From Elusimicrobiales bacterium (GTDB taxonomy: Bacteria; Elusimicrobiota; Elusimicrobia; Elusimicrobiales; UBA9959): DNA of 64,000 bases. The stretch spans positions 1,445 through 65,444 of the forward strand of contig JAVHLJ010000006.1 of assembly GCA_031082205.1 (NCBI GenBank). The letters run 5' to 3'. Below the pieces are notes generated by a model, which saw only the letters and a list, made by a program, of their open reading frames with translations, had not been told where the DNA came from and did not search any database. Numbering within the stretch: position 1 is the first letter of the stretch; each line of letters opens with the position of its first letter. Position numbers and translations under genes: made by a program. This document shows positions 16,026-48,085 of this stretch, in pieces.

Positions 16026-17939
<1,914 letters not shown>

Positions 17940-25070: not shown

Positions 25071-26227
25071 TGGCGCGCGCCATCTCCACGCCGATTTCCT
25101 CGCCGCTCGGAGGGCGGAGCGCGATGGACCGCCTGATGGAGGCGCCCGCCTATGACCGCTCCGCGCGCTCGGGAGCCCTTTTCCTGGAGGCCATGCGCGA
25201 GGCCGCCCGCGTCCATTGCCGCCGCAATCCCCGGTTCAGGGGGCTGTGGAAGCTCGCCGGCTTCTCTCCCTCCGACCTGCGCGCCGAGCCCGACCTGGCG
25301 CGCATGCCCCACGTGTTCGTGGCGGCGCTCAAGGAGAGGGACTTCGTCTCCATCCCCCGCCGGGAGATAGTCCTGGAGCTGACCTCCAGCGGCACCTCCG
25401 GCCAGCGCAGCCGCACCGTCCTGGACCAGGGCTCGCTGCTGCGCGTGCGGCGGATGGTATGGCGGATCTTCGGCGCCCTCGGCATGGCCGGGGACGGCGC
25501 GGTCAACGATTACCTCTGCTTCACCTACGATCCCCGCGTGGCGAAGGACGTCGGTACGGCCTTCAGCGACGAGAGCCTCACCGGCCTCACCCCGAGGGGG
25601 GAGGTCTTCTACGCGCTGCGCTGGGACGCGGCGAAGAAATCTTTTTATTTCGACATGGCCGGGGCCCTGGCCGCGCTGGAGCGCTTCGAAAGCTCCGGCC
25701 GCCCGGCCAGGCTGATAGGCTTCCCGGCGCACGCCATGGCCGTCTGCGACGAGTTCCGCGCGCGGCGCGGCCGCGCCGTGCGGCTGCATCCCGGCAGCTG
25801 GGTCATAACCGGCGGCGGCTGGAAGGACAAGCAGGACCGCGCGGTGGACAAGGGCGAGATGCGCGCCCGCCTGGCGGCCTCGCTCGGCCTGGGCCCGGAG
25901 CGCGTGCGCGACCTCTTCGGCATGGTAGAGCACGGCGTGCCCTACGTGGACTGCCCGCTCGGCAACTTCCACGTGCCGGCCTACAGCCGGGTCATCGCCC
26001 GCCACCCGGCCACGCTGGAGCCGCTGCCCTACGGAGAGACCGGCCTGCTGCAGTTCATAACCCCGTACCTGTCCAGCTACCCCTCGATCTCGCTGCTCTC
26101 CAGCGACAAGGGCCGGCTGGAGGAGCGCTGCTCCTGCGGGCTCGGCGGCCCCGTCATGCATATCGCCGGCCGGGCCGGGGTGAAGAAAATGAAGGGGTGC
26201 GCCATCTCGGCGTCCACGATGCTATGA
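25070..26227 (+). CDS. LuxE-like acyl-protein synthetase / adenylate-forming enzyme
   Basis: I place the start at ATG 25070, overlapping the GNAT stop (TGATG). LELTSSGTSGQRSR is an AMP-forming P-loop-like motif. Overall layout matches the LuxE family (PF04443-type) as I recall it. Confidence 0.6.
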   Translation: MARAISTPISSPLGGRSAMDRLMEAPAYDRSARSGALFLEAMREAARVHCRRNPRFRGLWKLAGFSPSDLRAEPDLARMPHVFVAALKERDFVSIPRREIVLELTSSGTSGQRSRTVLDQGSLLRVRRMVWRIFGALGMAGDGAVNDYLCFTYDPRVAKDVGTAFSDESLTGLTPRGEVFYALRWDAAKKSFYFDMAGALAALERFESSGRPARLIGFPAHAMAVCDEFRARRGRAVRLHPGSWVITGGGWKDKQDRAVDKGEMRARLAASLGLGPERVRDLFGMVEHGVPYVDCPLGNFHVPAYSRVIARHPATLEPLPYGETGLLQFITPYLSSYPSISLLSSDKGRLEERCSCGLGGPVMHIAGRAGVKKMKGCAISASTML

Positions 26228-28872: not shown

Positions 28873-28885
28873 CCGCCGGCCGCTT

Positions 28886-28894
28886 TGGTAGAAT
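28886..28894 (+). promoter_or_regulatory. Candidate extended -10 promoter element for the downstream aminopeptidase
   Basis: TGGTAGAAT (TGnTAnAAT) lies 48 nt upstream of ATG 28942. It is followed by the tandem palindromes CGGGCCCGaCGGGCCCG and the SD GGAGG. Confidence 0.35.
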
Positions 28895-28941
28895 ATCCGC
28901 GGGCCCGACGGGCCCGGCAGACGCGCGCACGGAGGATACAC

Positions 28942-30147
28942 ATGAGCGTTTACACGTCGAAGCAGCTGGAAAAATACGCCGATACTCTTATCTGGGGCCT
29001 GACCACCTCCCGCCCCAAGCCTTTCAAAAAATACGACAACATCCTGGTCAGGTGCGACCTTGAAGCTCGGCCGCTCGGCGAGACAGTCTACCGCAAACTG
29101 GTCGGTCGCGGTTTCAACGTGGTCTTCAATTTTCTCGCCACTCCCGCCATAGAGCGCTCCTTCCTCGAGCGTTCAGACCCCAGGCAGCGCGCCTTCCTCG
29201 GGTCCTGGGACGAGGAACTTTATGACAACCTTAACGGGTATGTCTACATAAACGCGCCGAGCTCGCTCACGCATCTGAAGGATATAGATCCAAAGCGGCA
29301 ATCCGAGGCCGCCATAGCGCGAAAGCCCCTGTTCAGGATCCGGGATAAACGCGAGGAAAAAGGGCTGTTTTCCTGGGTTCTCTGCACATATCCCACTGAA
29401 GAGCTCGCCAGCAGGGCGAAACTTACGCTGAAGGAATACGCCGCCCAGATCGCCAAGGCCTGCTATATCAACGAGCCCGACCCGGCGAAGAAATGGAACG
29501 CCGTCTTCAAAGAAGTAACGGCCATAAAGAAATGGCTCAACGCGATGCCCATTGACACCATACGCACGGAATCCGCCTCGATGGACTTTACGGTGAAACT
29601 GGGCGAGCGCAGGAAGTTCCTGGGCGTGAGGGGTCATAATATCCCCAGCTTCGAGATCTTCACCTCGCCCGACTGGCGCGGCACGCGAGGCGTCTATTGC
29701 GCCAACCTGCCGACCTTCCGCGGCGGCAATTACATCGAGAAGATACGCCTGGAATTCAAGGACGGGCGCGCCGTGAGGATCTCGGCCGCGAAAGGCGCTG
29801 ATTACGTCAGGAAGATCATGGCCACGGACAAGGGGGCCTCGCAGATAGGGGAATATTCGCTGACCGACCGCCGCTTCTCCAGGATAGACAAGTTCATGGC
29901 CGACATACTCTTCGACGAGAACCACGGCGGGAAGTACGGCAATTGCCACGTCGCCATCGGCAGCGCCTATACCGACACCTACGCCGGGGACCCCTCGAAG
30001 CTGACCAAAGAGGCCAAGGCGAAGCTTGGCTACAACGACTCGGCCGTGCACTGGGATATGATCAATACAGAGGACAAGAAGGTCACCGCGACGCTAAGGA
30101 ACGGTAAAAAAGCGACCATCTACGAGGGCGGGCAGTTCAAGTACTGA
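28942..30147 (+). CDS. M29 family aminopeptidase (AmpS/PepS/aminopeptidase T type)
   Basis: MSVYTSKQLEKYADTLIWGL and GNCHVAIGSAY are typical of M29. Start at ATG 28942 with SD GGAGG. Confidence 0.75.
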   Translation: MSVYTSKQLEKYADTLIWGLTTSRPKPFKKYDNILVRCDLEARPLGETVYRKLVGRGFNVVFNFLATPAIERSFLERSDPRQRAFLGSWDEELYDNLNGYVYINAPSSLTHLKDIDPKRQSEAAIARKPLFRIRDKREEKGLFSWVLCTYPTEELASRAKLTLKEYAAQIAKACYINEPDPAKKWNAVFKEVTAIKKWLNAMPIDTIRTESASMDFTVKLGERRKFLGVRGHNIPSFEIFTSPDWRGTRGVYCANLPTFRGGNYIEKIRLEFKDGRAVRISAAKGADYVRKIMATDKGASQIGEYSLTDRRFSRIDKFMADILFDENHGGKYGNCHVAIGSAYTDTYAGDPSKLTKEAKAKLGYNDSAVHWDMINTEDKKVTATLRNGKKATIYEGGQFKY

Positions 30148-30219: not shown

Positions 30220-31398
30220 TCAGGGATTCCGGGTCCAGGAGCTTTTACTTAATTTTTTTCCGTCCAGGAGAACCTCCCGTCCGGCGCCGCCGTTGAACGA
30301 CACTACCAGATCGACGTGCTGTGAAGAATGGTTGGCGGAACCGGACCGGAGCAGCCTGCTGAAACGGCGTCTCCCTCGCGCGTTCTTCAGGTCCGCGCCG
30401 AAAGCTTCCGGAAAACACGTGCCAAGGGCTATATGCATGGTTCCCCCGATCTTTTCGCAGAAAAGGGGATGCTTTAGCGGCAGGGATAGCCCCGTGTTTA
30501 TTCCGAAAGCCACTTCTCCCACCCGTTTCGCCCCGCTGTCGGTGCGTATTATCTCGCTTAACTTCCGCCCCCCGTTTTTTGATCTGAACGCGACGACTTC
30601 TCCGTCCGTGAATTTGAGGTACGTTCCGGATATGATCTCGCCCTGGACCAGGATCGGCATGTCCAGGAAGATTTCTCCGTTCACGCTGTTGGCCAATGGG
30701 CTGGTGAACACTTCTCCCTGGGGTATATTGATGCCTTGCAGGTCGTTCAGAATGCGCTGGCCCTCTATGATCATTTTCAGTTCCAAGATCCGTCCGCCCG
30801 GTCTGGGACTGGTGAGTATGGACAGCTCCCTTGTTTTTGAGAGCGCGGCCGATATTTTTTCCGCCGTCTTTAGTGTTCTCGAGAATGGTTCGGTGGCCCC
30901 GCGGATGACGGCTTCCGCGTATTTCCTGAAAGGGAGCCCCTCTATGCGCGCGAAAGCCTCGGTCGGATACATCGTCACGACCCACTTTTTCTCCCTGCGT
31001 ATTTCGCGCATCCCGGCGTCCAGCTCGAGGATCCGTTTCATGACAGGCCCTTCGGCGCATTTTGCCGCCTCCGGGTCTTCCATCCCCAGTATTTCTATTA
31101 CCTTGTCCGCTGCTTCGTTGCGCAGCCGCTGCCAGGCCGGGGCCGCGCGCAGGTTGCGGAGATCTCCCAGCCGGGATACGGCCGCGCTCCAGATCCGCCC
31201 TCTTTCATTGTCGGGGGGGGCCATCGCGATGTCGGCCATGCCGCCCGACCTGAGTATCTTTTCCTGAAGCAGTTCTATCAGCGGCCAGGCGGCGTGTTCG
31301 CCTCTTATCATCACCGTTTCGCCGGGTCTTACGCCTCCCAGGGACCTTGTAAGGAGGATGTCCGCCCATTTGTCGAGCAGGTTGCGATGTTTATCCAT
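30220..31398 (-). CDS. M29 family aminopeptidase (second paralog)
   Basis: MDKHRNLLDKWADILLTRSL and GGTMHIALGTCF. ATG 31398 chosen, 32 nt downstream of the histidine kinase stop. Confidence 0.7.
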   Translation of the reverse strand: MDKHRNLLDKWADILLTRSLGGVRPGETVMIRGEHAAWPLIELLQEKILRSGGMADIAMAPPDNERGRIWSAAVSRLGDLRNLRAAPAWQRLRNEAADKVIEILGMEDPEAAKCAEGPVMKRILELDAGMREIRREKKWVVTMYPTEAFARIEGLPFRKYAEAVIRGATEPFSRTLKTAEKISAALSKTRELSILTSPRPGGRILELKMIIEGQRILNDLQGINIPQGEVFTSPLANSVNGEIFLDMPILVQGEIISGTYLKFTDGEVVAFRSKNGGRKLSEIIRTDSGAKRVGEVAFGINTGLSLPLKHPLFCEKIGGTMHIALGTCFPEAFGADLKNARGRRRFSRLLRSGSANHSSQHVDLVVSFNGGAGREVLLDGKKLSKSSWTRNP

Positions 31399-31430: not shown

Positions 31431-33599
31431 TTACTTCCACGGCGGCTCCTTGCCGGTCACGGTCAGCCATGGAAGATGGGCAAAGGCCTCGGGCGCATGT
31501 CCTGTCGCCAGCCGGATGTTCTTGTAGCCCGCTGCACGCAGCCGCAGGGCGACTTCCTCCCCTTTCTCTCCGTCGCCAAGTTCCGAATCTATGTATATGC
31601 GGCTGTCCTTGCTTATCTCCAGCTCCGCGGAAAAGAAGTCGGCAGCGGAGGGGAATATGCGTACCGGTTCTCCCCTGGTTTCGGCCGAGGTCTTCCAGGT
31701 CATCCGCGTAAGCGCGTCATCGTCTATTAGCACGGTCAGCGCTTTGACCGCCGGGGTTCCCGGTCTTATGCGTATAGGGACCAGCCCGGCCAGTCCTTTA
31801 GGTATGATACGGATCCCCATGTTAAGGCAGGACGCGATAATGTCCGGTTCCTCGTACCGGCTGGTCGCCAGGACCGCCCTCTTTTGCAGGGAGAACTCCG
31901 CCGCCAGGCTCAGCCCGGTTTCGAAAGTGTCGGCCAGTTCGTAATCGAGAAGGAATAGGGCCGTATTGGCTGCGCCGGTGTTTTCGTTCATCCAGGCGCG
32001 TAAATCAGCGGAAGACGAGAGATGCACGGCCGTTATCCCGCCCCTGCCCGAACTCAGGGACTCCAGCCTGCCGCGCCATATCTGATGTATGCTGCTGTCG
32101 TCGTCCAGGATCACCAGAGTCCCGCCTTTTTCGATGCTTATCTCAGGCATGAACCAGGCCGGCGCCTCCGCGCGGGGGAGTCGTATCTCGGCTTCCGTTC
32201 CCTTTCCAGTGGAAGAACTAAGCGAAAAGGTCCCGTTCCAGGACTCGGTTACTGTCTTGGCGTAATGGACCCCCAGCCCGGATCCGCCGGTTTTTCCGTG
32301 GGTCTCTCCCCTTTTGCCTATTTTGGCCAGGATACCGGGCGGTATGCCTTTGCCGTCGTCGCGGACCCTTATGACCGCTTCATCGCCTTCCCGGTCCAGG
32401 GAGACGGTCGCGTAACCTTCCCTATCCATGGCCTCGACGGAGTTGTTTAGAAGGTTGGAGAGGGCCCGCTTAAGTTCGGAGGGACGAACCTTGGCGAAGA
32501 GGCCATAGGAGTCCCTCCCGAAGCAGGAGTCGATGCGGACGCCTATTTTGCCGCGGAACTGAAGACGCTTCTCGCTCACTATGGATTCTATGAGCGATGA
32601 GATAAGGCAGGCGGAAAGCGGCGCCTCCTGTTCTTTCGGCGCCGGGGCGCCGCCGTCTTCGCGGAACGGCAGGCTCCTGTTCCGCTCTATCAGGTCGTTC
32701 GCGATATCCCTGATCCTGTCTATGGCGCTCCGCAGCAGGCGGCGCTTCTCCTCCGGAAGGGAGGAGATGTCTTTGTTCAGGGAATCCATGGCCGCGAGGG
32801 GCGAGCGGATATCGTGCGCTACCTGGGCGGCCTGTTTGCCGAGCGCCGAGAAACTGGCCTCGCGCTGATGGGCTTCCTGGGAGGCGATAAGTTTTTTCAG
32901 CGAGTTCTTGAGGACGTCCAGCAGCACTTTCAGTTCCGGGCTGCTTTTCCGCGGCGCCAGGCGCGCGTCGAAGTCCTCAAGCGGTATCGGCCATTCTGTG
33001 CCTATTTTTTTAAGATTCGACACGAATTCGTCCAGCGGTCTCAGGATCGCCCTGGTGTTGTAGAGAAGCACGGCCGTCCAGGCCGGGATGAAAAGCAGGA
33101 AAAAGAAGAATACGCTGTTGAGCTGCCGGAGGAAATTCCCGTACGCCGTTTTCCAGTAATAGGCGATTTCCACGGCGCCCCAGTATTTCCCCGTATCGTC
33201 CCTCACGTCGGAACGGAGCACGGCGACCTTTTCCGCTCCGAGCACCAGGGACTCCTGTATCGCCCGCGTGGCGACCGCGACCCGGAAGGACTCTATTTCA
33301 AATACGTCCTTTTCCGTGCTCAGATGGACGGGCAGGCCCCGCTCATCGAGTATCGCCAGATAGGCCATTTCGTCCTTCTTGAAGAGGCCGGTGGAAAGCC
33401 TGGACAACTCGAAATAATTGGATATCTGCAGGCCGCTCAGCGCGATGTTGGCGACCTGTTCGCCGAAAGAGGCTCTGTCGGACAGGAACTCTTTCTTGTG
33501 GCTCTTTTCAAAACGGTACAAGTGGGATAGAAAAATCCCCAGGAGCATGGAGAAGCTCATCGCTATCACGAGGAGCACTAGTTTGAGGTTGGTTCTCAT
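31431..33599 (-). CDS. Hybrid sensor histidine kinase with two C-terminal receiver domains
   Basis: I place the start at ATG 33599 (MRTNLKLVLLVIAMSF). Two TM segments flank a ~170-aa extracytoplasmic region. H-box AHDIRSPLAAM, N box LLNNSVEAM, DDGKGIP, GGSGLGV. Then REC1 (LVILDDD...FLLDYEL...IPKG) and REC2 (VLIDDD...IYIDSEL). Confidence 0.8.
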   Translation of the reverse strand: MRTNLKLVLLVIAMSFSMLLGIFLSHLYRFEKSHKKEFLSDRASFGEQVANIALSGLQISNYFELSRLSTGLFKKDEMAYLAILDERGLPVHLSTEKDVFEIESFRVAVATRAIQESLVLGAEKVAVLRSDVRDDTGKYWGAVEIAYYWKTAYGNFLRQLNSVFFFFLLFIPAWTAVLLYNTRAILRPLDEFVSNLKKIGTEWPIPLEDFDARLAPRKSSPELKVLLDVLKNSLKKLIASQEAHQREASFSALGKQAAQVAHDIRSPLAAMDSLNKDISSLPEEKRRLLRSAIDRIRDIANDLIERNRSLPFREDGGAPAPKEQEAPLSACLISSLIESIVSEKRLQFRGKIGVRIDSCFGRDSYGLFAKVRPSELKRALSNLLNNSVEAMDREGYATVSLDREGDEAVIRVRDDGKGIPPGILAKIGKRGETHGKTGGSGLGVHYAKTVTESWNGTFSLSSSTGKGTEAEIRLPRAEAPAWFMPEISIEKGGTLVILDDDSSIHQIWRGRLESLSSGRGGITAVHLSSSADLRAWMNENTGAANTALFLLDYELADTFETGLSLAAEFSLQKRAVLATSRYEEPDIIASCLNMGIRIIPKGLAGLVPIRIRPGTPAVKALTVLIDDDALTRMTWKTSAETRGEPVRIFPSAADFFSAELEISKDSRIYIDSELGDGEKGEEVALRLRAAGYKNIRLATGHAPEAFAHLPWLTVTGKEPPWK

Positions 33600-33616: not shown

Positions 33617-35173
33617 TTACCTGCCGCAAAAGACGGCTCTCGAGGGTCTCGAGTCCTTGCCGCCGCCGGCGATGCTCACATGGTACATTTCGATGTCGTT
33701 GAAAGATGTGTTGGGGTACTGCACGCCTTCCACCCATTTCTGGACGGTGCCGTCGAAGATGTCCCCGGAGTAAAGCGGTATTATGTACGCTTTTTCTATC
33801 AGCATATCGTTCACCATCCTGAAAAGGGAGGTCCGCCTGGACGGGTTCATTTCGGTCCTGCATTTGTCCAGCAGCGTGTCCAGTTCCTTGTCCGCCTGAC
33901 TGAACATTTTTTTGCCGGAGTCCGATCGGTATGCCGACAAGAGAAAATAGCTGTCCATGAAAGGCCAGTCGCTGCCCAGCAGGGTCATATGCCAGAGTCC
34001 GGATTTGAAATTGGCGGCGATGCCGGAATTATCGGTCTTTTCCGGTATTATCCGCAGCCCTGACTTGGCCGCGTAAGCCGCCAGCCCGTCCAGCAGCGGC
34101 CCCGTGTAGGGGATGTTGCCCGTGAACTGGAGCTTTATCGGCGGAACATCCTTGAATTCTTTATACCCGGCCTTGCGGATAAGACGGAGCGCCTCGGCAG
34201 GGTCGTAGGCCGTCCCTTTGAACCCCGGGTCATAACCTACACGGCCTTTCGGGATATACGACGCCGATCTGCCGAGCAACGGGAACTCCGAACTGAGCCC
34301 GTCGAGCACCCGGTCGTAGTCTATGGCTCTCGCTAAGGCCTGACGGACGTATTTGTTGTCCAGCGGCGGATTGGAGGCGTTCAGGGTGAATATGAAGGAG
34401 ATTATCCCGTTGGTGAAAATACGCTTAAATCCGGAACGGTCGGCGCCCTTGGGGAGATTATATGGGGCGATGTCGTCCAGTTCGCCTTTGACGAAGTCCT
34501 CGAACAGGCGCTCCTTGTCGGGATATATGAAATAGACGATGCCGGGGAGTTTTGGGGGGGACATGAAATAGTCCGGGTTGGCTTTCAGGATCAGGCTGTT
34601 GTCGTTCCGGCATTCCAGTGTGAAAGGCCCGGTCCCTGTCGGAGCCTCTTCCGGCGACCCGCCGTACCCTTTTTTTATGATCGACGCCGCCGAACCGGCG
34701 AGGATGTGCAGAAGATAGGGGGTGGACTGCCTCGTCTCCACTATTACGGTGTCCCCCTCCGCCTTTATCCCGGAAATGTCGTTGAACTGCCTTACCTGGT
34801 CCGACCCCCTGATCATGCGCTGCAGCGAGAATACCACATCGTCGGGCGTAAGTTCGGACCCGTCCACGAAGCGGACCCCTTTCCTTATACGGAAGGCGTA
34901 TTTCCGGCCGTTGTCCGAGACCGACCAGCTCTCCGCCAGCATCGGTTTCCATCTGTAGTCCTTGTCGTAAGCGACCAGCTGGTCGAACAATTGACGTATC
35001 ACCTGCACCTCGTTGCCGGAAGTGCCCTTCACGGGGTCCAGGCTGATAGGCATGGCGTAGAGTATCCGCCGGTAATAATCGTTACGGGGGACCGGCTTTT
35101 CATCTCCGATCGCCGGGCCGGCGAAGGCCGTGACGATGGCGAGAACCGAGATCATGACAGGGCCGCTAAACAT
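33617..35173 (-). CDS. Extracytoplasmic solute-binding protein, family 5 (peptide/nickel Opp/Dpp type), orphan
   Basis: Signal peptide MFSGPVMISVLAIVTAFAGPAIG with SD GGGAG upstream of ATG 35173 (alternative ATG at 35203). Typical SBP_bac_5 layout (LDPVKGTSGNEVQVIRQLFDQLV...). No permease or ATPase genes are adjacent. Overlaps the radical SAM stop by 8 nt. Confidence 0.75.
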   Translation of the reverse strand: MFSGPVMISVLAIVTAFAGPAIGDEKPVPRNDYYRRILYAMPISLDPVKGTSGNEVQVIRQLFDQLVAYDKDYRWKPMLAESWSVSDNGRKYAFRIRKGVRFVDGSELTPDDVVFSLQRMIRGSDQVRQFNDISGIKAEGDTVIVETRQSTPYLLHILAGSAASIIKKGYGGSPEEAPTGTGPFTLECRNDNSLILKANPDYFMSPPKLPGIVYFIYPDKERLFEDFVKGELDDIAPYNLPKGADRSGFKRIFTNGIISFIFTLNASNPPLDNKYVRQALARAIDYDRVLDGLSSEFPLLGRSASYIPKGRVGYDPGFKGTAYDPAEALRLIRKAGYKEFKDVPPIKLQFTGNIPYTGPLLDGLAAYAAKSGLRIIPEKTDNSGIAANFKSGLWHMTLLGSDWPFMDSYFLLSAYRSDSGKKMFSQADKELDTLLDKCRTEMNPSRRTSLFRMVNDMLIEKAYIIPLYSGDIFDGTVQKWVEGVQYPNTSFNDIEMYHVSIAGGGKDSRPSRAVFCGR

Positions 35174-37082
35174 TGGATATCGCTCCCATGTCCGCAAGGT
35201 CATTGAGGTGCCGGATGAGGTCTTCTTTTCCTCCCAGGCCTTCCTCGCGAGGCATATCGCCGGGCCTGGCTGGCCGGCGCTTCGCTGCCTTCAGCGCCTT
35301 GAACAGGCGCGGTTCCAGCTCGAAAGACTCTATGTCCTCCCCCGTGTCGACGAGGCAGAGGAGCGTCCTCCCCGGCCGGGGCCTTTCGGGCAGCGGCCCG
35401 GGCCCGAGATAATCGGAAAGCCGTATTCTCGATTCCAGCAGAAAGGCTTTTCCCGAGAGGCGGTACGGTCTGCCGACGTCGAAAGGGCGCGATTTGCGGG
35501 GCGCGGCCGTCCCCCTGGCCTTTACCATTTTCAGAAGAAGCTTCTCGTATCGGAATATTTCCCGGAAGACGAGGAACTCGGATGGTTTTAGTTTTTTGCG
35601 AATGCAGGCCGTCAGTCCGGGCTTCCACGCCCGCCCGCTAAGGACAGGAAAGACGGCGGCCGGCGGTAATCCGGGGACTGAAAATAGGTAGTTGAAAGAG
35701 CGGTAATGTCCGACCGCCAGTTCCTGCAGCCTCCAGGTCGCGTGCGGCAGCAGCAGGCTTCTTCCCGGCCTGTCCTTAAGGGCCCAGAACTGCCTGAATA
35801 TTTCCGGGTGCCCGTGTATCATGCCGCGGGTCTTCCCGTCGCTGGCTATCAGGGGGGGGGTATAGTAGGAATTCTTCGCGCTGACCTTCCGGGTCCGCTC
35901 CGCTATTTCCGTTCCCGGAAGGGGGAACAGGTGGAGGATGTTCACCCGCTCCGCGCCCATGACCCGCAGCCTGAACGCGAGCCGCACCGAGGCGTTACGG
36001 TCCGAGTCGGACTCCTGGGGGAACCCGAGGATGAAGGAAAAAACGGGGTTGAGGCCGCTGGCGATGAGGTCAGAGGCCAGCGGGAGGACTTTCTTGACGT
36101 CTACGTTCTTCCCGATCGAGTGCTGTATCCTCCGGGATCCGCTCTCGATCCCCACGAAAAGACCGATGCAGCCGGCCTTTTTCATGCCATCCATCAGCCC
36201 CCTGTCCCCAAAAAGGTGTTCCAGCCGCCCGCTGGCGCCCCAGGAGAGCGCTTTGCCCTCGAGTTCCGAGCAAAGCTTTACCGCGAACTCCCTGTCGCAG
36301 AGCAGGTTGTCGTGCACGAGGGAGAACCTTGCCCCGGGGAATTTGGCGGCCAGGGACTGCATTCGCCCGGCTATTACGGCCGGCGGGAGCACGCGGTATT
36401 TCCGTTCCCACATCAGGGACGTGGAGCAGTACGAGCATTTATACGGACAGCCGGTCCCCGCCAGCACCAGCATGAGGCACGCGGGGTTAATCCGGCGGTA
36501 CCCGCCGAAATCGACAAGGCCGTAGTCCGGTTCTATGGTCGTCACGTCAGGCCCCGAGGACTGCGTCGGCGTAGATCTCGCGGCGCCGCTTCCCGGCTCG
36601 CGGTATGTCAGTGACGGGACCTCACGGAAGTCCAGGCCGTTCAGCGCGGCGCAGAGCCTGGTCAACGGTGTTATCCCGTCGTTCCTGATCACGAAGTCGA
36701 CGAAAGGGAAATCCCGTATTATATTTTCCGCTACGAAGGTCGCATGAGGCCCGCCCATCACTATACGCGAGCCGTATCTGCGTTTTATGTACTCGGCGAG
36801 CCTGACCGACAGGTGGAAGTTGTCGCAGAATCCGCCCAGCCCGACCAGGTCGAAAGGGCCCCTTTTCCTGAAAACAGAATCGACGCACCTTTCCTGCGCT
36901 TTCGCGGGGGGGAGCCGTCGCATTTTTTTATCGCAGTATTCGAAGGGGATGTCCAGGATGGTCGTTTCGGTGCCCGGCGAGGCCTCTTTCAGCCCGGAAG
37001 CCAGGTATACCAGGTGCAGGGGATATTCCAGGTCGCGATTTGAAAGCATCGCGAGCATTGGATTTATCAGGAGTACTTTCAT
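35166..37082 (-). CDS. B12-binding (class B) radical SAM enzyme with ~150-aa C-terminal extension
   Basis: MKVLLINP... is a B12-binding-domain N-terminus. CX3CX2C cluster motif GCPYKCSYCS. 638 aa. I do not recognise the C-terminal region after about aa 480. Confidence 0.8.
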   Translation of the reverse strand: MKVLLINPMLAMLSNRDLEYPLHLVYLASGLKEASPGTETTILDIPFEYCDKKMRRLPPAKAQERCVDSVFRKRGPFDLVGLGGFCDNFHLSVRLAEYIKRRYGSRIVMGGPHATFVAENIIRDFPFVDFVIRNDGITPLTRLCAALNGLDFREVPSLTYREPGSGAARSTPTQSSGPDVTTIEPDYGLVDFGGYRRINPACLMLVLAGTGCPYKCSYCSTSLMWERKYRVLPPAVIAGRMQSLAAKFPGARFSLVHDNLLCDREFAVKLCSELEGKALSWGASGRLEHLFGDRGLMDGMKKAGCIGLFVGIESGSRRIQHSIGKNVDVKKVLPLASDLIASGLNPVFSFILGFPQESDSDRNASVRLAFRLRVMGAERVNILHLFPLPGTEIAERTRKVSAKNSYYTPPLIASDGKTRGMIHGHPEIFRQFWALKDRPGRSLLLPHATWRLQELAVGHYRSFNYLFSVPGLPPAAVFPVLSGRAWKPGLTACIRKKLKPSEFLVFREIFRYEKLLLKMVKARGTAAPRKSRPFDVGRPYRLSGKAFLLESRIRLSDYLGPGPLPERPRPGRTLLCLVDTGEDIESFELEPRLFKALKAAKRRPARPGDMPREEGLGGKEDLIRHLNDLADMGAISNV

Positions 37083-37101: not shown

Positions 37102-37134
37102 CAAATAGAAAGGGACCATGCGCCTATGGTCCCG
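37102..37134 (-). terminator. Candidate leaky intrinsic terminator/attenuator between the small ORF and the radical SAM gene
   Basis: On the minus strand: GGGACCAT-AGGCGC-ATGGTCCC followed by TTTCTATTTGT. It lies 25 nt after the small-ORF stop and 30 nt before the radical SAM ATG. Confidence 0.5.
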
Positions 37135-37159: not shown

Positions 37160-37228
37160 TCAGACTATGTCCGCGTTGATACGACCGACATTGAAGTTCT
37201 TCTTCTTCACGCTGTCTATGCGTTTCAT
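37160..37228 (-). CDS. Unannotated 22-codon ORF (MKRIDSVKKKNFNVGRINADIV), candidate precursor/leader peptide
   Basis: ATG preceded by AGGGGGAttaac (strong SD, 5-6 nt spacing). Candidate sigma70-like promoter about 55 nt upstream. TGA stop followed by a hairpin. Below the ORF-track length cut-off. Confidence 0.5.
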   Translation of the reverse strand: MKRIDSVKKKNFNVGRINADIV

Positions 37229-37282
37229 GTTAATCCCCCTGGGGGCCGGAACATCGGGACCGCAAGGACCCCCGTAAAATAA

Positions 37283-37311
37283 AGTTTAGCAGAATGCGTC
37301 TCAGTTCGCAA
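37283..37311 (-). promoter_or_regulatory. Candidate promoter of the small ORF/radical SAM operon
   Basis: Minus strand TTGCGA-17 nt-TAAACT, located in the locally AT-richer intergenic region. Confidence 0.4.
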
Positions 37312-37398
37312 GGGCCGGAGGGCCCGGGTAACCCGGCATTCCCGGGTCGCGGCGCAACTGCTTTGTCCGGAGCTTTTTAATTTGGAATAATGTGATAC

Positions 37399-38646
37399 AT
37401 GAGCACACTCTTCGCGGCTTTAAGGACGGAGCGCGGCCGGCACGTGGCGCGCGGCGTTTTCCTGGCGGGCTTCTCGGCCACTTTCCTCTTCTGCGGCTAC
37501 GAGTTCATCCGCTCGCCAGCCGAATCCATCTTCATGGCCCATTTCAGCGCGGCCGACAAGCCCTACGCGCTGAGCGTGGTGCCTTTCTTCATGGCCGCGC
37601 TCATTTACCTCTACGGGCGCTCGCTCTCGGCCTTCGGCGGCTCCCGCACCATGGTCGGCTCCATGCTGGCCTCGGCCGCCGGCCTGGTCGGCCTCTATTT
37701 CGCCGTGGGCGTCTTCGGCAAGCCGGCCGCCTTCCTGCTCTACGTTTTCAAGGAAGCCTATGTCGTCATCATCTCGGAGCAGTACTGGTCGTTCATCAAC
37801 AGCGTGCTGCGCGACGAGGAGGGAAAGGTCTTCAACGGGCCCGTGGCCGGCCTGGGCGCGCTGGGCTCTCTGCTGGGCGGCTTCTTCCTTAGCCGCTACG
37901 TGGCGTCTTTCGGCACCGAGGCCTTCATCCTCTTCTCGGCCGTCATGTTCTTCCCGGCGGCCGTCCTGATACGCGGCGCCTACAAGGAGGCCGGCGAGCC
38001 GCAGCCCTCCCGCGAGGAGGCCGGCGGCCGCCTCGGCCACGTGCACCTCAGCATACTCAGGCAGAACCGCACGGTGCTCTTCATCGCGCTGGTCATCTTC
38101 AGCACTCAGGTCGTGGCTACCATGCTGGACATGCGCTTCTCGCTGCTCGTGCAGGACGCCATGCCGGACAAGGACCTGCGCACCGCCTACCTGGGCTCTT
38201 TCTGGATGTGGGTGAACAGCTTCTCCTTCTCCATGCAGTTCATCCTGGCGCCGCTGCTGCTGCGCTGGGTGCCTACCCGGGGCATACAGGCGGCCATACC
38301 GGCCGTGCACATCGTCGCCTGCGCGCTGCTGCTGCTGGCCCCGTCGCTGGGCCTGGCGGCCGGCGCCTTCCTGCTCTTCAAGGGCATGGACTATTCGATC
38401 TTCCGCGCCTCCAAGGAGACGCTCTACATACCGTTCTCCTACGACACGCGCTACCGCGCCAAGCAGGTGGCCGACGCCTTCACCTACCGCTTCTCAAAGG
38501 GTTTCACCTCGATAGTCCTGTCCATGATAAAAGCCTCGGGCGGGATGCCGGCCGGCGCCTACGCGGGGGCCGCGCTGGTCTTCGCGGCGGCCTGGCTGGG
38601 CCTCTCTTTCCCGATGACCGCGAAGCGGGAGACGGCCGCCGCCTGA
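37399..38646 (+). CDS. Polytopic membrane transporter, MFS-type, possibly TLC (ATP/ADP antiporter-like) family
   Basis: 415 aa, hydrophobic over most of its length. The N-terminus FLFCGYEFIRSPAESIF...KPYALSVVPFFMAALIYLYGRSL resembles the short Npt/TLC-like family. The family assignment is tentative. Confidence 0.45.
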   Translation: MSTLFAALRTERGRHVARGVFLAGFSATFLFCGYEFIRSPAESIFMAHFSAADKPYALSVVPFFMAALIYLYGRSLSAFGGSRTMVGSMLASAAGLVGLYFAVGVFGKPAAFLLYVFKEAYVVIISEQYWSFINSVLRDEEGKVFNGPVAGLGALGSLLGGFFLSRYVASFGTEAFILFSAVMFFPAAVLIRGAYKEAGEPQPSREEAGGRLGHVHLSILRQNRTVLFIALVIFSTQVVATMLDMRFSLLVQDAMPDKDLRTAYLGSFWMWVNSFSFSMQFILAPLLLRWVPTRGIQAAIPAVHIVACALLLLAPSLGLAAGAFLLFKGMDYSIFRASKETLYIPFSYDTRYRAKQVADAFTYRFSKGFTSIVLSMIKASGGMPAGAYAGAALVFAAAWLGLSFPMTAKRETAAA

Positions 38647-38716: not shown

Positions 38717-39709
38717 TCAGTAGTTGAGTGTCAGCGACATGCGGTGGGCGGCTCCCAGGTCGCCCTGCGGGGAGAAGGAATAATCGAGGCTGTATATGTC
38801 GTGCCGCAGCCCGGCGCCCAGGCCTATATTGCGCAGGCCCGTGTTGTCGGTCAGCGACCGGGTATTGAAGCCGGCCCTGAGCGCCATGCCGGTCTTTTTC
38901 CCGAAAGGTATCCTCAGTTCGCTTCCCAGGGCCAGCCAGGGATAATTGTCGTTGGGCTGGGCGAAATCCACCGTTATGTCCAGGTACTTGGCCAGGTGCG
39001 TCACGCTGCCCACTTTCAGCACCAGGGGCAGCGGGGCCTCCTCCTTGTCGTGGCGCAGGCTGCCCATGATATTGAGAGCTACCATGCTCAGGCGGAACCT
39101 GTTGTCGAAGATGTAAGGGAACAGCAGGCCTATGTCGGAAGAGATGGTATTGTCGCTGGCCAGTATCTTGGAGCGGACCAGCTTGCCGGTGGCGCCCAGT
39201 ATGAAGCGCTCCTCGGGGTCGCGGTTGAACCCGGTTATGTAGCAGGCGAAACCGACGCTCAGCGCCAGGTCGTAGGGGCTGAAAGAGCCCAGGTCGACCG
39301 CGTTCTCGTCGGTCCTGTCGATGCCGCCGGCCGAGAAATGCTTGGCCGCCATGCCCCAGGCGCCTACTTCGCCGGCGTTCTGCGCGTAGGCCACGTAGTT
39401 CATCGAGGTGTCGGCCAGGTACATGGAATGCATCATGAAGAGGGACTGTCCCTCGATGTTTATGAGGCCGGCGGGGTTCCAGTCGATGGCCGAGGCGTCG
39501 TCGACCAGCGAGGAATACGCCTCGCCCAGCGCGGCGCCCCTGGGGCCCGCCATTATCTTCAGGAACTGGCCGGAGGAGGTGCCTATGGCCGCCGCCCCGT
39601 ACTCGGCCCGTGCCGGGGCCGGCGCCGCCGCCAGCGCGGCGCAAAGGCAGAGGGCCGCCGCGCGCGTCGCCGCGCGGGCCGCCTTGTCCTCGTCCGGGTA
39701 TCCCGTCAT
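38717..39709 (-). CDS. PorV/PorQ family outer-membrane beta-barrel protein
   Basis: TSSGQFLKIMAGPRGAALGEAYSSLVDDASAIDWNPAGL matches the family N-terminal signature as I recall it. The C-terminus ends SLTLNY (terminal aromatic). The start lies 2 nt after the upstream cargo gene stop. Confidence 0.65.
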   Translation of the reverse strand: MTGYPDEDKAARAATRAAALCLCAALAAAPAPARAEYGAAAIGTSSGQFLKIMAGPRGAALGEAYSSLVDDASAIDWNPAGLINIEGQSLFMMHSMYLADTSMNYVAYAQNAGEVGAWGMAAKHFSAGGIDRTDENAVDLGSFSPYDLALSVGFACYITGFNRDPEERFILGATGKLVRSKILASDNTISSDIGLLFPYIFDNRFRLSMVALNIMGSLRHDKEEAPLPLVLKVGSVTHLAKYLDITVDFAQPNDNYPWLALGSELRIPFGKKTGMALRAGFNTRSLTDNTGLRNIGLGAGLRHDIYSLDYSFSPQGDLGAAHRMSLTLNY

Positions 39710-39711
39710 GT

Positions 39712-42700
39712 TCAGCGCTCCACCGCCAGCTTGAAAACTTTTCCCTCGCCGCCGGGCGGCTTGATGAAGGCCAGGTATACGCCGCTGGCCACCTCCGTGC
39801 CTTTCTCGTTCTTTCCGTCCCAGGTGCCGGTGCCGTCATGCCCGGTCTTGAACTCCCGGACCAGCTCGCCCAGGAGGGTGTAGATCTTGACGCTGGCGTC
39901 GTAGGGCAGGTTGGCGAAGCGCACCGCCCCGGCTACCGACGAGGGACGGAAAGGATTCGGGTAGATCTTCACGCCGGACAGCCCCGCGGCGGGCTGAGAC
40001 ACCATTATCTGGAAAGTGGAGAGGTGCCAGGTCTGGGCGCGCACCACGTTCGCCGCGGTGTCGGGTACTGAGGGCAGCGGGACCCAGCGCGAGCTGGAGA
40101 CGTCGTAGAGCGCCAGTATCAGGCTGCGCTCGTCGGTGCCCGCGGGCAGAGAGCTCTCCAGGTAAGGAACGGCCAGCGTGAGGGCGCTCAGTACCGAGAC
40201 CGGCGGGAAATGGGTGACCTCCATTCCCACGCCCGTGGGTATGAGCGTGCCGGCGTTGCCGGGGGCGGAGGGGAAGTCGGTCTCCGGCTCTATCGTTATC
40301 CTGGTGGAGCCGCCCAGCGCGCCGGCCGGCGCCGTCACGGAATAGTCGCCGTACGAGGTGGGCAGCGTCACCACGGTATCCTCGCCGTAAGGCGCGGTAA
40401 GGCTCTGGCCGGAAAGGGTCCTGGTCGATCCCGAGTCGGAGAAGACCGAGCGGAATATCCCGCCCCGGCTTATGGCCTGTATCCTGGCGTAATAAGTCGT
40501 CCCTACGAGGAGGCCGGTAAAATCGAAGCTGAGGCCGCCGGCCGTGCCCGAAGAGTACATCGGGTCGAAGCCCTCCTCCGTGGAAACCTCCACCGCGTAC
40601 ACGGTCCCGGTCTGGTTATTGCCGTGCAGCCAGTGCAGCGTGAAGCCGTCGAGCCGCATGCCCGAGAAGGCCTGCGGCTTGGCCAGGACCTGCGCCGTGG
40701 CCGGCAGAGTGAGGGGCGCCGGCAGCGGCGCGTATTTGGTGCCCACTCCGGTATGGTTCAGGGCGGAGACCCGCGAATAGTAGGAGGCGTTCGACAGCAG
40801 TCCGCCGAACCAGGCGCTGAGGCTGAGCGTGGTGGAGGAATGGACCGCGCCCGAGAAGTCCGGCAGGGTGGATATCTCCACGGTGTATTCCGTGGAAGGA
40901 GGGGGAGGGTTTGCCCCGTTGCCCCAGTTTATGGTGACCGAGGACTGCCAGACTCCCGACGGGGCGGCGTTCTCCGGAACGAAGGCGAGCGTGGCCATAG
41001 GAGAGAAGGCGTACGGGCCCTCGGCTATGCCGCGGCGGTTGTACGAGGTCACCTGGAAGAAATAGGTAGTGTTCGGTATCAGCCCCGCCGTGCTCAGGTA
41101 AGTGTTGTAGGTGTCGGAGCTGACGACCTGCCCGCCTACGAGCGCGGTGCTGCTCGCCACCCGGTAGAGCGTGTCCGCCGGATTGGTCCCCGCCGTCCAA
41201 TTGACGCGCAGGGTCCCCGTGGTCATGTCGGTATAGGCTGCCTGCAGCGGGCGCGCCGCGCGGGTCGCCGTCGCGACGAGGAGGGCGTAGTTGGCCCCGC
41301 CGTCCTGGGCCAGCGTCCCCAGCCGCAGGTAATAACTCGTGTTGGCGGCCAGGCCGGCTATCGTCAGCGTGGAGGTCCCTATGGCCGCGGACCGGGAGGA
41401 GAACTCGATCGTGGCGAAAGAAGGGGACTGCGAGGCTTCGAGCAGATAGCCGCCGGCCGCCGTCTGTTCCTGAGGGCCGGACGGCAGGGCCGACCAGGTC
41501 ACCGCGATGCTGGAATAGAACACCCCGCTGAAAGCCACGCCTGACGGCAGCGGCGGCAGCGTGTAGTCGTAAGAGGGGGTTGAGACGGTATAGACGGTGG
41601 TGCCGGCGAAAACGGGCCCCGCCCTGAAGTAGTAGAGAGTGTTGGGGTCGAGGCCTTCGACGCTAACCGAGGTCGCCGCCCCGTTCGAGGTGAAGCCTTC
41701 GGCCTCTATGGTCGCGAACGAAGAGAACGCCGACGCCTGCAGTACATAGCCGTCCGACCCGGCGGGGTCGAAGGTCACGGCCGCGCTGGTGCTCCATACA
41801 CGGTAGAGAGTCACCAGGGCCAGCGGATCGGCCGCCAGCGTGACCGTCTGGCCGATATCCGTGTAGGTAGGGGTATTGTCCCAGTTCAGCGTGGCCAGGC
41901 GCAGGTAATAGGTGGTGCTGGGGCGCAGGCTGTCGAAGCCGATTCTCCCGTTATTGGCGGCCGGAGCGGCCGAGGAGGTTATCACCGAGCCTTCGCCGAA
42001 AGGCCTGGTCGAACGCTGCAGGACATAGCCCTCGCAGGCCGAGCCCTGCGGCGCGAGCGGCAGGGGGGAGAAATGGACCGTAAGGGAGGTCTTGTCGGGC
42101 GCTATCGGCGGGTTGATCTGGTTGTTCAGGCCCGCCGGGTTGGCCCTGGTTATGGTTGACAGCACCGCGGTGTAGTTGAGCTCGCCGTTGGAGTTGAGGG
42201 AACCGGCCCTGAAATACCAGGTGGTGTTGGGCTGCAGCCCCGCCACGGTCAGGGAATTGTCGGCCAGCGCGTAGGTGCGGCTGGAGATTACGGGGGCCGG
42301 GCCGGCGAAAGCGTCGCTTGAAGCCTGCAGCTCGTAGCCCTCGGCGCCCCCTACCAGCGCGCCCCAGGAGAGCGACGCCTCGTTTATGTCCCTGGAGACG
42401 AGGGCGAAAGAAGAGATGGTGGAGGCCTGCGTCGTGAAGTCGTCCACGTCGCTCAGGTTGGCGGCGTAGTTCCAGTTCAGCGCGCCCGCCTTGTAGTAAT
42501 AGGTCGTATTGGTCAGCAGTCCCGTTATGGACAGCGAGCCGAGCGCCGGCTGCAGCGTGGACGAGGTGTGGACTACGCCCTCGAAGACCGGCGAGCTGGA
42601 CATGGTCAGCGTGTAGCCCTCGGCGGCGCGCTCCCGCACGGCGCCCGTCATGGGGGTCCAGGACACGGCGGCGCTGCTGCGGTAGGCTGAATACGAGAGG

Positions 42701-43347
42701 TTCTCCAGCCTGGCCGCCAGCGTGCTCGTCGCGGTCTGCACGGCGGCCGTTTCCACGTCCGCCAGGTTGGAGGCCCTTACCCTGAACTGGTAGGTGGTAT
42801 TGGCCAGCAGGCCGCCCAGCGTCCAGGGGGGCATGACGTCCGCGAGTGTGTACTTGTACGAGGTGAAACTGGTGTGCGAGGTGTATTCCAGTATGTACTC
42901 GGTCGTTTCGGGGTTGCCGTTGGTCGCCCAGCCTATGTTGACATGGGCCGTCACCGACGATTCCGCGTTGAAGAAGTATTCGCCCTGCTGGAAGTATATG
43001 CCCGACGGCGCGGCCGCCAGCGTCACCGCCTGGGTGACGTTGCCCGCGTAAGAGCCGCCGGAGCTCTTGACCCGGAAATAGTAAAGCGTGTCGCGGGTGA
43101 GGCCGGATACGGTGACATCGGACGCCGCGGAAATGCCCGAATCGGTGAGAGGCGAGAAATCGGATTCCTCGGATATTTCCCAGGTGTAGTTCGGAGTGCC
43201 GTCGTTCCAGTCGAAGGTCAGGCTGGTCTCGGTCCAGCCGGCGGCGGCGGGGCTGAGCTGCGCCGAGGCCGTGGCCGCCAACGCCGGCGCCAGGCACAGC
43301 GCGAGGGCGCCGGCCAAAAGCCTGGACTTTCCGGTCGGAAGGGACAT
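39712..43347 (-). CDS. Large surface protein: ~10 fibronectin type III-like repeats + T9SS type-A/FlgD-Ig-like C-terminal sorting domain
   Basis: Signal peptide MSLPTGKSRLLAGALALCLAPALAATASA. ATG 43347 preferred over the TTG at 43386. Ten recurrences of an FN3 F-strand-like motif (DTLYYFRV, NTTYQFRV, NTTYYYKA, NTTWYFRA, STTYYLRL, NTLYYFRA, NTSYYLRL, NTTYFFQV, NASYYSRV, GTTYYARI). C-terminal KIYPNPFRP...VKIYTLLGELV...WDGKNEKGTEVASGVYLAFI. Confidence 0.7.
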   Translation of the reverse strand: MSLPTGKSRLLAGALALCLAPALAATASAQLSPAAAGWTETSLTFDWNDGTPNYTWEISEESDFSPLTDSGISAASDVTVSGLTRDTLYYFRVKSSGGSYAGNVTQAVTLAAAPSGIYFQQGEYFFNAESSVTAHVNIGWATNGNPETTEYILEYTSHTSFTSYKYTLADVMPPWTLGGLLANTTYQFRVRASNLADVETAAVQTATSTLAARLENLSYSAYRSSAAVSWTPMTGAVRERAAEGYTLTMSSSPVFEGVVHTSSTLQPALGSLSITGLLTNTTYYYKAGALNWNYAANLSDVDDFTTQASTISSFALVSRDINEASLSWGALVGGAEGYELQASSDAFAGPAPVISSRTYALADNSLTVAGLQPNTTWYFRAGSLNSNGELNYTAVLSTITRANPAGLNNQINPPIAPDKTSLTVHFSPLPLAPQGSACEGYVLQRSTRPFGEGSVITSSAAPAANNGRIGFDSLRPSTTYYLRLATLNWDNTPTYTDIGQTVTLAADPLALVTLYRVWSTSAAVTFDPAGSDGYVLQASAFSSFATIEAEGFTSNGAATSVSVEGLDPNTLYYFRAGPVFAGTTVYTVSTPSYDYTLPPLPSGVAFSGVFYSSIAVTWSALPSGPQEQTAAGGYLLEASQSPSFATIEFSSRSAAIGTSTLTIAGLAANTSYYLRLGTLAQDGGANYALLVATATRAARPLQAAYTDMTTGTLRVNWTAGTNPADTLYRVASSTALVGGQVVSSDTYNTYLSTAGLIPNTTYFFQVTSYNRRGIAEGPYAFSPMATLAFVPENAAPSGVWQSSVTINWGNGANPPPPSTEYTVEISTLPDFSGAVHSSTTLSLSAWFGGLLSNASYYSRVSALNHTGVGTKYAPLPAPLTLPATAQVLAKPQAFSGMRLDGFTLHWLHGNNQTGTVYAVEVSTEEGFDPMYSSGTAGGLSFDFTGLLVGTTYYARIQAISRGGIFRSVFSDSGSTRTLSGQSLTAPYGEDTVVTLPTSYGDYSVTAPAGALGGSTRITIEPETDFPSAPGNAGTLIPTGVGMEVTHFPPVSVLSALTLAVPYLESSLPAGTDERSLILALYDVSSSRWVPLPSVPDTAANVVRAQTWHLSTFQIMVSQPAAGLSGVKIYPNPFRPSSVAGAVRFANLPYDASVKIYTLLGELVREFKTGHDGTGTWDGKNEKGTEVASGVYLAFIKPPGGEGKVFKLAVER

Positions 43348-43358
43348 ATAGCTTTTAT

Positions 43359-43386
43359 AGTTTAACAGATTCGGCCCGAAATTCAA
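43359..43386 (-). promoter_or_regulatory. Candidate promoter of the FN3-cargo/PorV operon (near-leaderless)
   Basis: Minus strand TTGAAT-16 nt-TAAACT. The -10 ends 11 nt before ATG 43347. Shares GTTAAACTATA with the site at 47768. Confidence 0.4.
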
Positions 43387-47795: not shown

Positions 47796-48085
47796 GGGCG
47801 CAAGGGCCCACGCCGGGTCATGGTCAAAGGTCCCAGTGCGGTCTGGGCCCCGCGCCGCCGTCCCGCGCGCCCCGGACCGCGCCCGCCGGGCATTGACGCG
47901 TCAACCCCGGGGCCGCGGCGGCCCCCGGCGGTGAAGACCTTTGGGCCTATGCCGCCTGGGCCATTTGGGCCCTTGACAAAGGAGAGGAGGTCTTTTACCC
48001 TATAAATGAGAATGACCGCCGGGGATAAGGAAAGGGACTTTCCTGTATTCAAGCGGAAGTTTTGTTGTCAGCGGATCGGAAAAAT

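Follow-up and report, generated by a model that had tools for sequence, protein, structure and literature searches.

Does a reading frame of only 22 codons, lying directly ahead of a radical S-adenosylmethionine (rSAM) enzyme gene, encode a peptide, and is that peptide what the enzyme modifies? The question is raised by a 64,000-nt stretch of contig JAVHLJ010000006.1 (assembly GCA_031082205.1) from an Elusimicrobiales bacterium, referred to here as the window, whose positions are used as coordinates throughout. Judged by its conservation in related genomes, the open reading frame (ORF) is a real, selected, coding small gene, and we put the probability that its product is the substrate of the neighboring B12-binding rSAM enzyme at roughly 70%.

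A 22-codon reading frame upstream of an rSAM gene

The original prediction, made from the letters of the window, had read this ORF from the minus strand, with a Shine-Dalgarno sequence ahead of its start, a hairpin behind its stop, and the Ile codon ATA that genes of the window favor. These elements are:

37160–37228, minus strand: putative precursor peptide gene, 22 codons plus stop, translated as MKRIDSVKKKNFNVGRINADIV, then TGA
37234–37240, minus strand: Shine-Dalgarno sequence AGGGGGA, 5 nt upstream of the ATG at 37228
37102–37133, minus strand: terminator-like hairpin with an 8-bp stem and a 6-nt loop, together with its T tract, lying after the peptide stop and before the rSAM start

Each of them was recovered. 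Translation of 37160–37228 gives MKRIDSVKKKNFNVGRINADIV*, AGGGGGA occupies 37240–37234 at the expected 5 nt from the start codon, and the hairpin, located at 37133–37112, consists of GGGACCAT-AGGCGC-ATGGTCCC followed by TTTCTATTTG, beginning 26 nt past the peptide stop and ending about 30 nt ahead of the rSAM ATG at 37082. ATA is indeed the commonest Ile codon in ten genes of the window (167 ATA, 139 ATC, and 13 ATT). Such usage is odd for a sequence of 64.8% G+C, and AGG is also common for Arg.

Judged by itself, the 22-codon ORF is no better than chance. Nine ORFs with 20 or more codons overlap the 316-bp intergenic region and its edges, not counting the rSAM gene, a transporter gene, and three other long ORFs. 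What lifts this ORF above chance is its conservation in 12 independent loci with a coding pattern of substitution. Pfam and NCBIfam searches with the peptide family matched no family, and Rfam searches, run on the region with permissive E-values and on the entire window at gathering score, returned nothing relevant, neither a cobalamin riboswitch nor a leader family; a tRNA search found none. The peptide has no signal sequence.

The peptide is conserved and under selection across related loci

The DNA of relatives was taken from genome and metagenome assemblies around rSAM orthologues. The rSAM protein has only about 14 full-length relatives (33–53% identity) among 5.8 billion protein clusters, and the system is therefore rare. 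The original prediction had suggested looking for a conserved ORF upstream of homologous rSAM genes, and a homologous ORF of 20–22 codons does lie upstream of the orthologous B12-rSAM gene in 12 independent loci (rSAM 38–53% identical), whose hosts include Elusimicrobia metagenome-assembled genomes (MAGs; L002, L005) and an unclassified MAG (L001). Together they encode 11 distinct peptides, each of 20–22 residues:

Window: MKRIDSVKKKNFNVGRINADIV
L110: MKRIDKVNKKNFNKGRSCGEIM
L111 and L113 (identical): MKRVDTVKKKNFSKTKSISEVI
L114: MKRVDKVNKKNFNNGRSNGEIF
L115: MKCVDTVSKKNFRNSRATHYN
L116: MKRVDTVSKKNFKVARTTQIT
L117: MKRVDTVNKKNFKVVRTTQIT
L001: MKCVDSIKKKNFKNGRATQID
L005: MKRVDVVKKKNIITQTVAYD
L002: MEQIDITEKRDLENSTYQQDF
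L123: MNPIDIVEKESLQDSNNTHCD

Residues 1–12 are conserved as MKR(I/V)DxVxKKNF and the C-terminal 8–10 residues are variable, which fits the leader-core layout that had been read from the window peptide alone. Substitutions were counted over codons 2–12 in the ten closer family members, where the columns that vary number 11 of 11 at third positions, 5 of 11 at first, and 2 of 11 at second. The proportion of synonymous change (pS) over these codons is 0.85 and that of nonsynonymous change (pN) 0.12, giving a pN/pS of 0.15; in the tail the ratio is 0.43–0.60. By these sequence comparisons the peptide ORF is under purifying selection. The Ser6 codon illustrates the pattern, being AGC in the window and TCC in L001, so that the residue is kept despite two substitutions, and the peptides of L111 and L113 are identical although three synonymous changes separate their genes. 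The remaining two frames of the same strand contain stops.

In a six-frame regular-expression search of 125 loci, each system locus gave a single match to the peptide motif, and about 100 unrelated loci gave none. In all 12 loci with the full system the peptide gene is directly 5' of the rSAM gene, even where the order of the downstream genes differs. Three rSAM relatives that are 39–42% identical (L003, L120, and L121) sit in another context, where the binding protein, kinase, and M29 peptidase, the further components of the system described below, are missing, and they have no peptide either. A scan of metagenome contigs yielded only distant rSAMs (at most 30% identity), none of them with the peptide.

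The adjoining enzyme is a B12-binding rSAM with a putative peptide-recognition domain

The gene that follows the peptide encodes the candidate maturase:

35166–37082, minus strand: B12-binding rSAM enzyme, 638 aa, with an RRE-like C-terminal domain at about residues 528–638

Here RRE stands for the RiPP recognition element, RiPPs being peptides that are made by the ribosome and modified after translation. Pfam detects Radical_SAM in this protein (E 1.6e-16) as well as B12-binding (E 1.4e-5), the latter under its gathering score (25.3 against 32.1). The CxxxCxxC cysteines C212, C216, and C219 are invariant in 15 sequences, and the AlphaFold2 model (pLDDT 84) has B12-rSAMs as all of its top Foldseek matches in PDB, namely MgmA, AprD4, TsrM, CysS, TokK, and OxsB. 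The best NCBIfam match is ApyD (NF050148; 180.5 bits, E 5e-53), with an alignment spanning model positions 60–430 of 645 (residues 60–433), and BchE comes next at 85 bits; as the ApyD cut-off is 750 bits, the window enzyme is not an ApyD orthologue. ApyD itself is a B12-rSAM with an RRE, and it converts the penultimate residue of its precursor ApyA into (2S,3R)-β-methyltyrosine (PMC10635010). The PoyB/C-type C-methyltransferases with which a comparison had been drawn are not the nearest relatives: TIGR03975 (RiPP maturation rSAM C-methyltransferase), the closest listed model for that comparison, scores 40.2 bits against a cut-off of 281.85, compared with 180 bits for ApyD.

The last ~110 residues form a separate β-β...β-β-α-α domain (model pLDDT 85). 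Foldseek aligns it with the TglHI holoenzyme (8hi7_A, which is not established as the TglI chain; E 1e-3, probability 1.0, TMq 0.65), with TigE, and weakly with the RRE of PbtF. The C-terminal domain of TglI is an RRE (PMC10880893), and the domain of the window enzyme models as an RRE-like fold.

The broader proposal that a B12-rSAM C-methylates the peptide is strengthened by ApyD being the nearest named family and by the RRE-like fold, and it is still an argument from resemblance. The penultimate residue of the peptide is Ile, Val, or Tyr in 9 of the 11 members, mostly after Asp, Glu, Gln, or His, and by analogy this position may be compatible with an ApyD-like Cβ-methylation site.

A conserved promoter, palindrome, and terminator frame the peptide gene

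Upstream of the Shine-Dalgarno sequence lie two further elements:

37283–37311, minus strand: σ70-type promoter, with −35 TTGCGA at 37311–37306, a 17-nt spacer, and −10 TAAACT at 37288–37283
37312–37325, minus strand: GC palindrome GGGCC-CTCC-GGCCC, directly upstream of the −35 box

The window promoter, TTGCGA-N17-TAAACT, fits 8 of 12 consensus positions, and a consensus promoter scan called none on the minus strand of the window, the candidate falling under threshold. The σ70-like promoter that had been claimed stands because the arrangement is conserved across related loci, 11 of which keep TTGCGG-N17-(TGn)TAnACT. The palindrome has counterparts in the same place, as a GGNCC-NNN-GGNCC-TTGC element; the upstream block in related loci runs GGGyCC-AAA-GGCCC, TTGCGG, 17 nt, (TGn)TAnACT. 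The 3-nt-spacer pattern GGNCCNNNGGNCCTTRY occurs in 11 locus records, reducing to 8 independent loci once duplicates are removed, solely at the peptide promoter, and it is absent from about 100 unrelated loci. The palindrome of the window has a 4-nt spacer, and the search pattern fits it in an overlapping register, 37324–37308. From its sequence, the conserved block reads as a promoter of the σ70 type whose −10 is extended; the 14-bp palindrome ahead of it, centered near −45, would be a candidate operator or protein-binding site.

A σ54 promoter was considered and rejected, the GG/GC elements being 13–14 nt apart instead of 10 and the properly spaced extended −10 being conserved. The σ70-type promoter is preferred as the simpler assignment because the extended −10 spacing fits and a σ54-like gene adjoins only some of the loci.

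Closer to the coding sequence, a purine-rich GGAG/GGGG box lies 5–9 nt ahead of the start codon in 12 of 12 loci. The spacer between peptide and rSAM contains a clear hairpin plus T run in L110, L111, L113, L114, L115, and L123, these being unrelated in sequence, and less clear hairpin candidates in L116, L001, L002, and L119. The terminator is conserved in structure and position, not in sequence, and would presumably permit partial read-through. Leaky terminators behind the precursor gene are usual in bacteriocin and RiPP operons.

The operon continues with a binding protein, a histidine kinase, and an aminopeptidase

Three genes follow the rSAM on the same strand:

33617–35173, minus strand: SBP_bac_5 (DppA-like) periplasmic peptide-binding protein, 518 aa (Pfam E 4e-57)
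31431–33599, minus strand: sensor histidine kinase of about 722 aa, counted from the MRTNLK start (Pfam HATPase_c and HisKA)
30220–31398, minus strand: divergent M29-family metallo-aminopeptidase, 392 aa (Pfam Peptidase_M29, E 1.6e-39), the last gene of the operon

The ATG of the binding protein overlaps the rSAM stop within ATGTTTAG. A hydrophobic N-terminal Sec-type signal sequence is present in the window protein and in 8 orthologues, and its nearest solved relatives are dipeptide-binding DppA proteins. Orthologues (37–52% identical) are located directly 3' of the rSAM in every locus that reaches that far, and no ABC permease or ATPase gene was found beside the binding protein. The kinase is laid out as a first transmembrane (TM) segment, a well-conserved extracytoplasmic domain of about 130 aa, a second TM segment, HisKA, HATPase, and a receiver-like C-terminus with a weak Response_reg match (E 0.009). 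It is the most conserved protein of the set (54–59% identity in 8 full-length loci, 40% in L004); of the 11 loci that reach far enough, 10 have it and L115 does not.

Orthologues of the operon M29 protein occur in 11 loci and are 50–61% identical to it. Residues E229, E295, H322, H361, and D363 are invariant and common to a canonical M29 paralogue, leaving the catalytic metal-ligand pattern intact; the PDB relatives are AmpS, aminopeptidase T, and PepS, and there is no signal sequence. A second, canonical M29 gene lies at 28885–30147 on the plus strand (Pfam E 2e-104), convergent with the operon gene and 22% identical to it.

By tblastn, the gene order in related loci is rSAM, binding protein, kinase, M29, or else rSAM, binding protein, M29, in some cases a gene of the major facilitator superfamily (MFS), and kinase. 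In this comparison the binding proteins are 45–52% identical to that of the window. The DHA3/MFS_3 efflux gene (PF05977) lies within the operon in L114, L122, and L002/L124 and is 54–58% identical across lineages. The window has an MFS/TLC-like (ATP/ADP-transporter-like) membrane protein at 37399–38646 on the plus strand, divergent from the intergenic region of the peptide; it was rejected as the exporter of the system, having no homology to the conserved system MFS.

In L110 (5110–7695) and L005 (2610–5215) the system is flanked by a short σ54-like protein and a response regulator that is σ54-dependent. The short protein has 354 aa, with Sigma54_DBD as the only domain detected, and its gene is also found at the upstream ends of L111 and L113; neither it nor the σ54-dependent response regulator was found in the 64-kb window. 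The flanking regulator could be the partner of the kinase. The conserved promoter has no canonical −24/−12 spacing. Peptide, rSAM, binding protein, kinase, and M29 are co-inherited.

A possible route from peptide to extracellular signal

The operon as we read it has the peptide as its first cistron, followed by the B12-rSAM, the DppA-like binding protein, the histidine kinase, and the M29 aminopeptidase. A dedicated σ70-type promoter with its palindrome would yield a short and abundant peptide transcript, with less enzyme transcript coming through the leaky terminator; the three elements are present in the DNA, and it is their behavior that we infer. The N-terminal half of the peptide would be the leader, docking with the rSAM at its RRE-like C-terminal domain, and the enzyme would then modify the variable tail. 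The likeliest modification would be cobalamin-dependent C-methylation of an unactivated carbon, with the penultimate residue as a candidate site by analogy with ApyD. The M29 aminopeptidase may subsequently trim the leader from the N-terminus, possibly halting at the modified residue, and an MFS transporter, which in four related loci belongs to the operon, may export the product. In the periplasm, the binding protein would capture the product and signal to the two-TM kinase, giving an autoinducer- or pheromone-type circuit whose specificity would be set by the variable tail.

The additional components, namely the binding protein, kinase, M29, and MFS, are what lead us to favor a sensed extracellular peptide rather than merely another methylated RiPP. 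On our preferred reading, the product would leave the cell as a modified peptide and be detected by the binding protein together with the kinase. For a signaling role of the system we would give somewhat less than even odds, and more tentative still is the idea of an unrecognized class of modified-peptide cell-cell signals in diderms, namely Elusimicrobia and relatives, combining B12-rSAM alkylation, M29 trimming, MFS export, sensing by a DppA-like protein and a hybrid kinase, and strain-specific 'pherotypes' set by the tail. A variable tail joined to a conserved sensor scaffold has the look of multi-specificity pheromone systems.

Evidence against the substrate and signal reading, and alternative explanations

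Several observations weigh against this reading. Translation, modification, export, and sensing are all inferred from sequence. The ApyD score of 180 bits is far under the family cut-off, the RRE assignment depends on the one borderline Foldseek E-value (1e-3), and Pfam, NCBIfam, and PDB-sequence searches with the C-terminal domain of the rSAM found no match. The tails share no residue plainly needed for one chemistry, and the penultimate residue is Asp or Cys in two distant members. Since the peptide is inherited along with the entire gene set, co-occurrence cannot single out its partner protein. In L004 (rSAM 33% identical) the binding protein and kinase are kept with no recognizable peptide, and in L119 (151–226) the homologous frame (…KRIDVVKKKKLLKTSSTDK), downstream of a good GGAGG box, has AGG in place of ATG, which might reflect decay of this copy, an error of assembly, or a start codon of non-canonical type. 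Neither a system-type MFS exporter nor a DNA-binding response regulator was found in the 64-kb window.

The alternative that survives best keeps the peptide as a RiPP precursor and gives it a non-signal product, antimicrobial or metallophore-like, with the binding protein serving recapture or immunity and the kinase only autoregulation; we regard it as unlikely. It has a precedent in MbnE, an OppA-like protein of a RiPP operon that binds Cu-methanobactin (PMC7558416), and the best NCBIfam matches of the binding protein include nickel and metallophore binders, yet MbnE is absent among the solved relatives of the binding protein at E<1e-10, which are DppA-type, and the tails have no conserved Cys/His pairs or other metal ligands. 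The family of the system MFS (PF05977/DHA3) is one of efflux proteins, a fast-evolving core is typical of bacteriocins too, and in L124 the system sits amid other RiPP-like clusters; however, the conserved gene set includes neither a TonB-dependent receptor nor an ABC permease or immunity gene, and the kinase, most conserved and nearly always present, suits sensing as the core function.

Improbable, in our view, is a cis-acting leader peptide whose translation controls the terminator by attenuation or stalling and which has no function in trans. An intrinsic terminator does separate the ORF from the rSAM in most loci, the ORF is very short, and its conserved Lys run could slow ribosomes. But no antiterminator was found, the 5' arm of the terminator pairing with the ORF in 2 of 7 loci in folds that omit the 3' arm; the distance from stop to terminator ranges over 23–48 nt, with a spacer of 176–251 nt in L123, L119, and L005; and the region folds no better than shuffled sequence (z = −1.3). 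Conservation at the N-terminus with relaxation at the C-terminus is the opposite of what a stop-proximal arrest peptide would display, and no Rfam family was matched.

It is quite improbable that the ORF encodes a genuine small protein that is not an rSAM substrate and instead modulates, for example, the kinase or the binding protein. The inheritance of the peptide with the whole gene set, not singling out the rSAM, would allow this, as would L004, which has rSAM, binding protein, and kinase and no recognizable peptide. Opposed to it are the position of the peptide directly 5' of the rSAM in 12 loci despite changing downstream order, the RRE-like domain of an rSAM whose nearest named relative modifies peptides, and the lack of a signal sequence in the peptide, whereas the sensor domains are extracytoplasmic. 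That the ORF arose by chance within a 5' untranslated region, for which the nine further ORFs of at least 20 codons overlapping the intergenic region might speak, is hardly credible when frame, length, start, Shine-Dalgarno sequence, and peptide sequence are kept in 12 loci with synonymous change saturated.

Comparison with known systems

The substrate reading finds its closest parallel in ApyA/ApyD, the aminopyruvatide system of Burkholderia thailandensis, which likewise has a B12-rSAM of about 640 aa, with a peptide-recognition domain where the window enzyme has a putative one, and a ribosomal precursor. Two members of the peptide family end in Y-N or Y-D, and ApyA ends in Y-D. In other respects the systems differ: the window precursor is unrelated to ApyA, much shorter, and without the GYLYD motif; the operon has no MNIO (ApyHI), P450 (ApyO), or methyltransferase (ApyS); and apy clusters, as they have been described, do not have the context of binding protein, kinase, and M29.

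For the signaling part, the comQXPA and agrBDCA systems of Firmicutes hold a short precursor, a modifying enzyme, and a sensing histidine kinase in one operon, and the signal part evolves fast. Precursor, modifying enzyme, and kinase are encoded together here too, and a variable tail again contrasts with a conserved remainder. Unlike those systems, with their isoprenyl transferase ComQ or peptidase AgrB, the present one has a B12-rSAM and a diderm host, would sense through a separate DppA-like binding protein where they use a polytopic kinase alone, and has no adjoining response regulator of the LytTR or NarL type; its sequences are unrelated to theirs. Binding-protein-dependent sensing has precedents in DppA-Tap, LuxP-LuxQ, and TorT-TorS, where the ligand is not a RiPP of the same operon. 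The present system resembles them in having a permease-less binding protein and a membrane sensor with a periplasmic domain, the two of which would interact.

Methanobactin operons similarly combine a short precursor with a family-5 binding protein, MbnE, which binds the mature product (PMC7558416). They differ from all of our loci, which have no MbnB/C, no TonB-dependent MbnT, and no conserved core Cys pairs, and whose maturase is a B12-rSAM. In the PqqA/PqqE-PqqD and MftA/MftC-MftB systems, a peptide of 20–30 residues lies beside an RRE-using rSAM of the SPASM type, with a peptidase in the cluster. Short peptide, rSAM, and peptidase are clustered in our loci as well, but product residues are invariant there and the C-terminus is variable here, and the enzymes are SPASM-type there and B12-type here. 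A cofactor-type peptide following PQQ/mycofactocin logic was rejected, as a variable C-terminus does not fit it.

A RiPP precursor beside its rSAM maturase is a well-known kind of arrangement. What appear to be new are the peptide family, the distinct ApyD-like enzyme clade, and their coupling to a binding protein, a kinase, and an M29 aminopeptidase in diderms. No model in Pfam, NCBIfam, or Rfam covers the peptide or the leader region, and literature searches on the gene combination found nothing relevant. An unannotated frame of 22 codons, under the cut-offs of gene callers, is here a selected gene that defines a new precursor-peptide family. The combination of an ApyD-like B12-rSAM with a binding protein, kinase, aminopeptidase, and efflux pump suggests RiPP chemistry in signaling in poorly studied, mostly uncultured diderm phyla, in which, to our knowledge, peptide pheromones are almost unknown. 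The system is also small and tractable: new B12-rSAM chemistry on Ile, Val, or Tyr could be sought with a single peptide and a single enzyme, and ligands with one binding protein.

Further observations in related loci and in the window

A distant Firmicutes cluster in Paenibacillus sp. ClWae2A (L006, 3835–12360; similar in L007 and L009) contains an rSAM 31% identical to that of the window. It comprises two B12-rSAMs, one of them ApyD-like (270 bits), a HemN/HutW-like rSAM, an SBP_bac_5 protein without signal peptide, an MFS transporter, and a 61-aa ORF, MKGGENDMSKVLNTTQVEEVVQQPVEETVEAVLDSEKVTDTSALTPKRLTRVVTSRVVSEW. The cluster may be another uncharacterized RiPP-like system, and it suggests a wider association of ApyD-like rSAMs with family-5 binding proteins.

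The two other RiPP-like clusters that flank the system in L124 (Elusimicrobia) lie at 2212–4751 and 13773–16494. One has a 55-aa ORF and an MFS gene together with an rSAM/SPASM maturase that is similar to anaerobic sulfatase maturase and to DynA; the second has a lanthipeptide-synthetase-like gene (RamC_N/Pkinase/LANC_like) and an ABC transporter.

Elsewhere in the window, three consecutive plus-strand genes at 23832–28872 encode a protein with a GNAT domain, an acyl-protein synthetase of LuxE-like type, and a 1218-aa fusion of LuxC-like acyl-CoA reductase and AMP-binding domains, which together look like an acyl-activating and acyl-reducing cluster. On the minus strand, 38717–43386 includes a 1224-aa protein with five fibronectin-III domains and a C-terminal CHU_C/FlgD-Ig type IX sorting domain, adjoining a PorV/UPF0164-like outer-membrane protein; this suggests a type IX secretion substrate. 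An 847-aa protein at 48062–50605 on the plus strand combines N-terminal TPR repeats with a C-terminal eukaryote-type Ser/Thr protein kinase domain.

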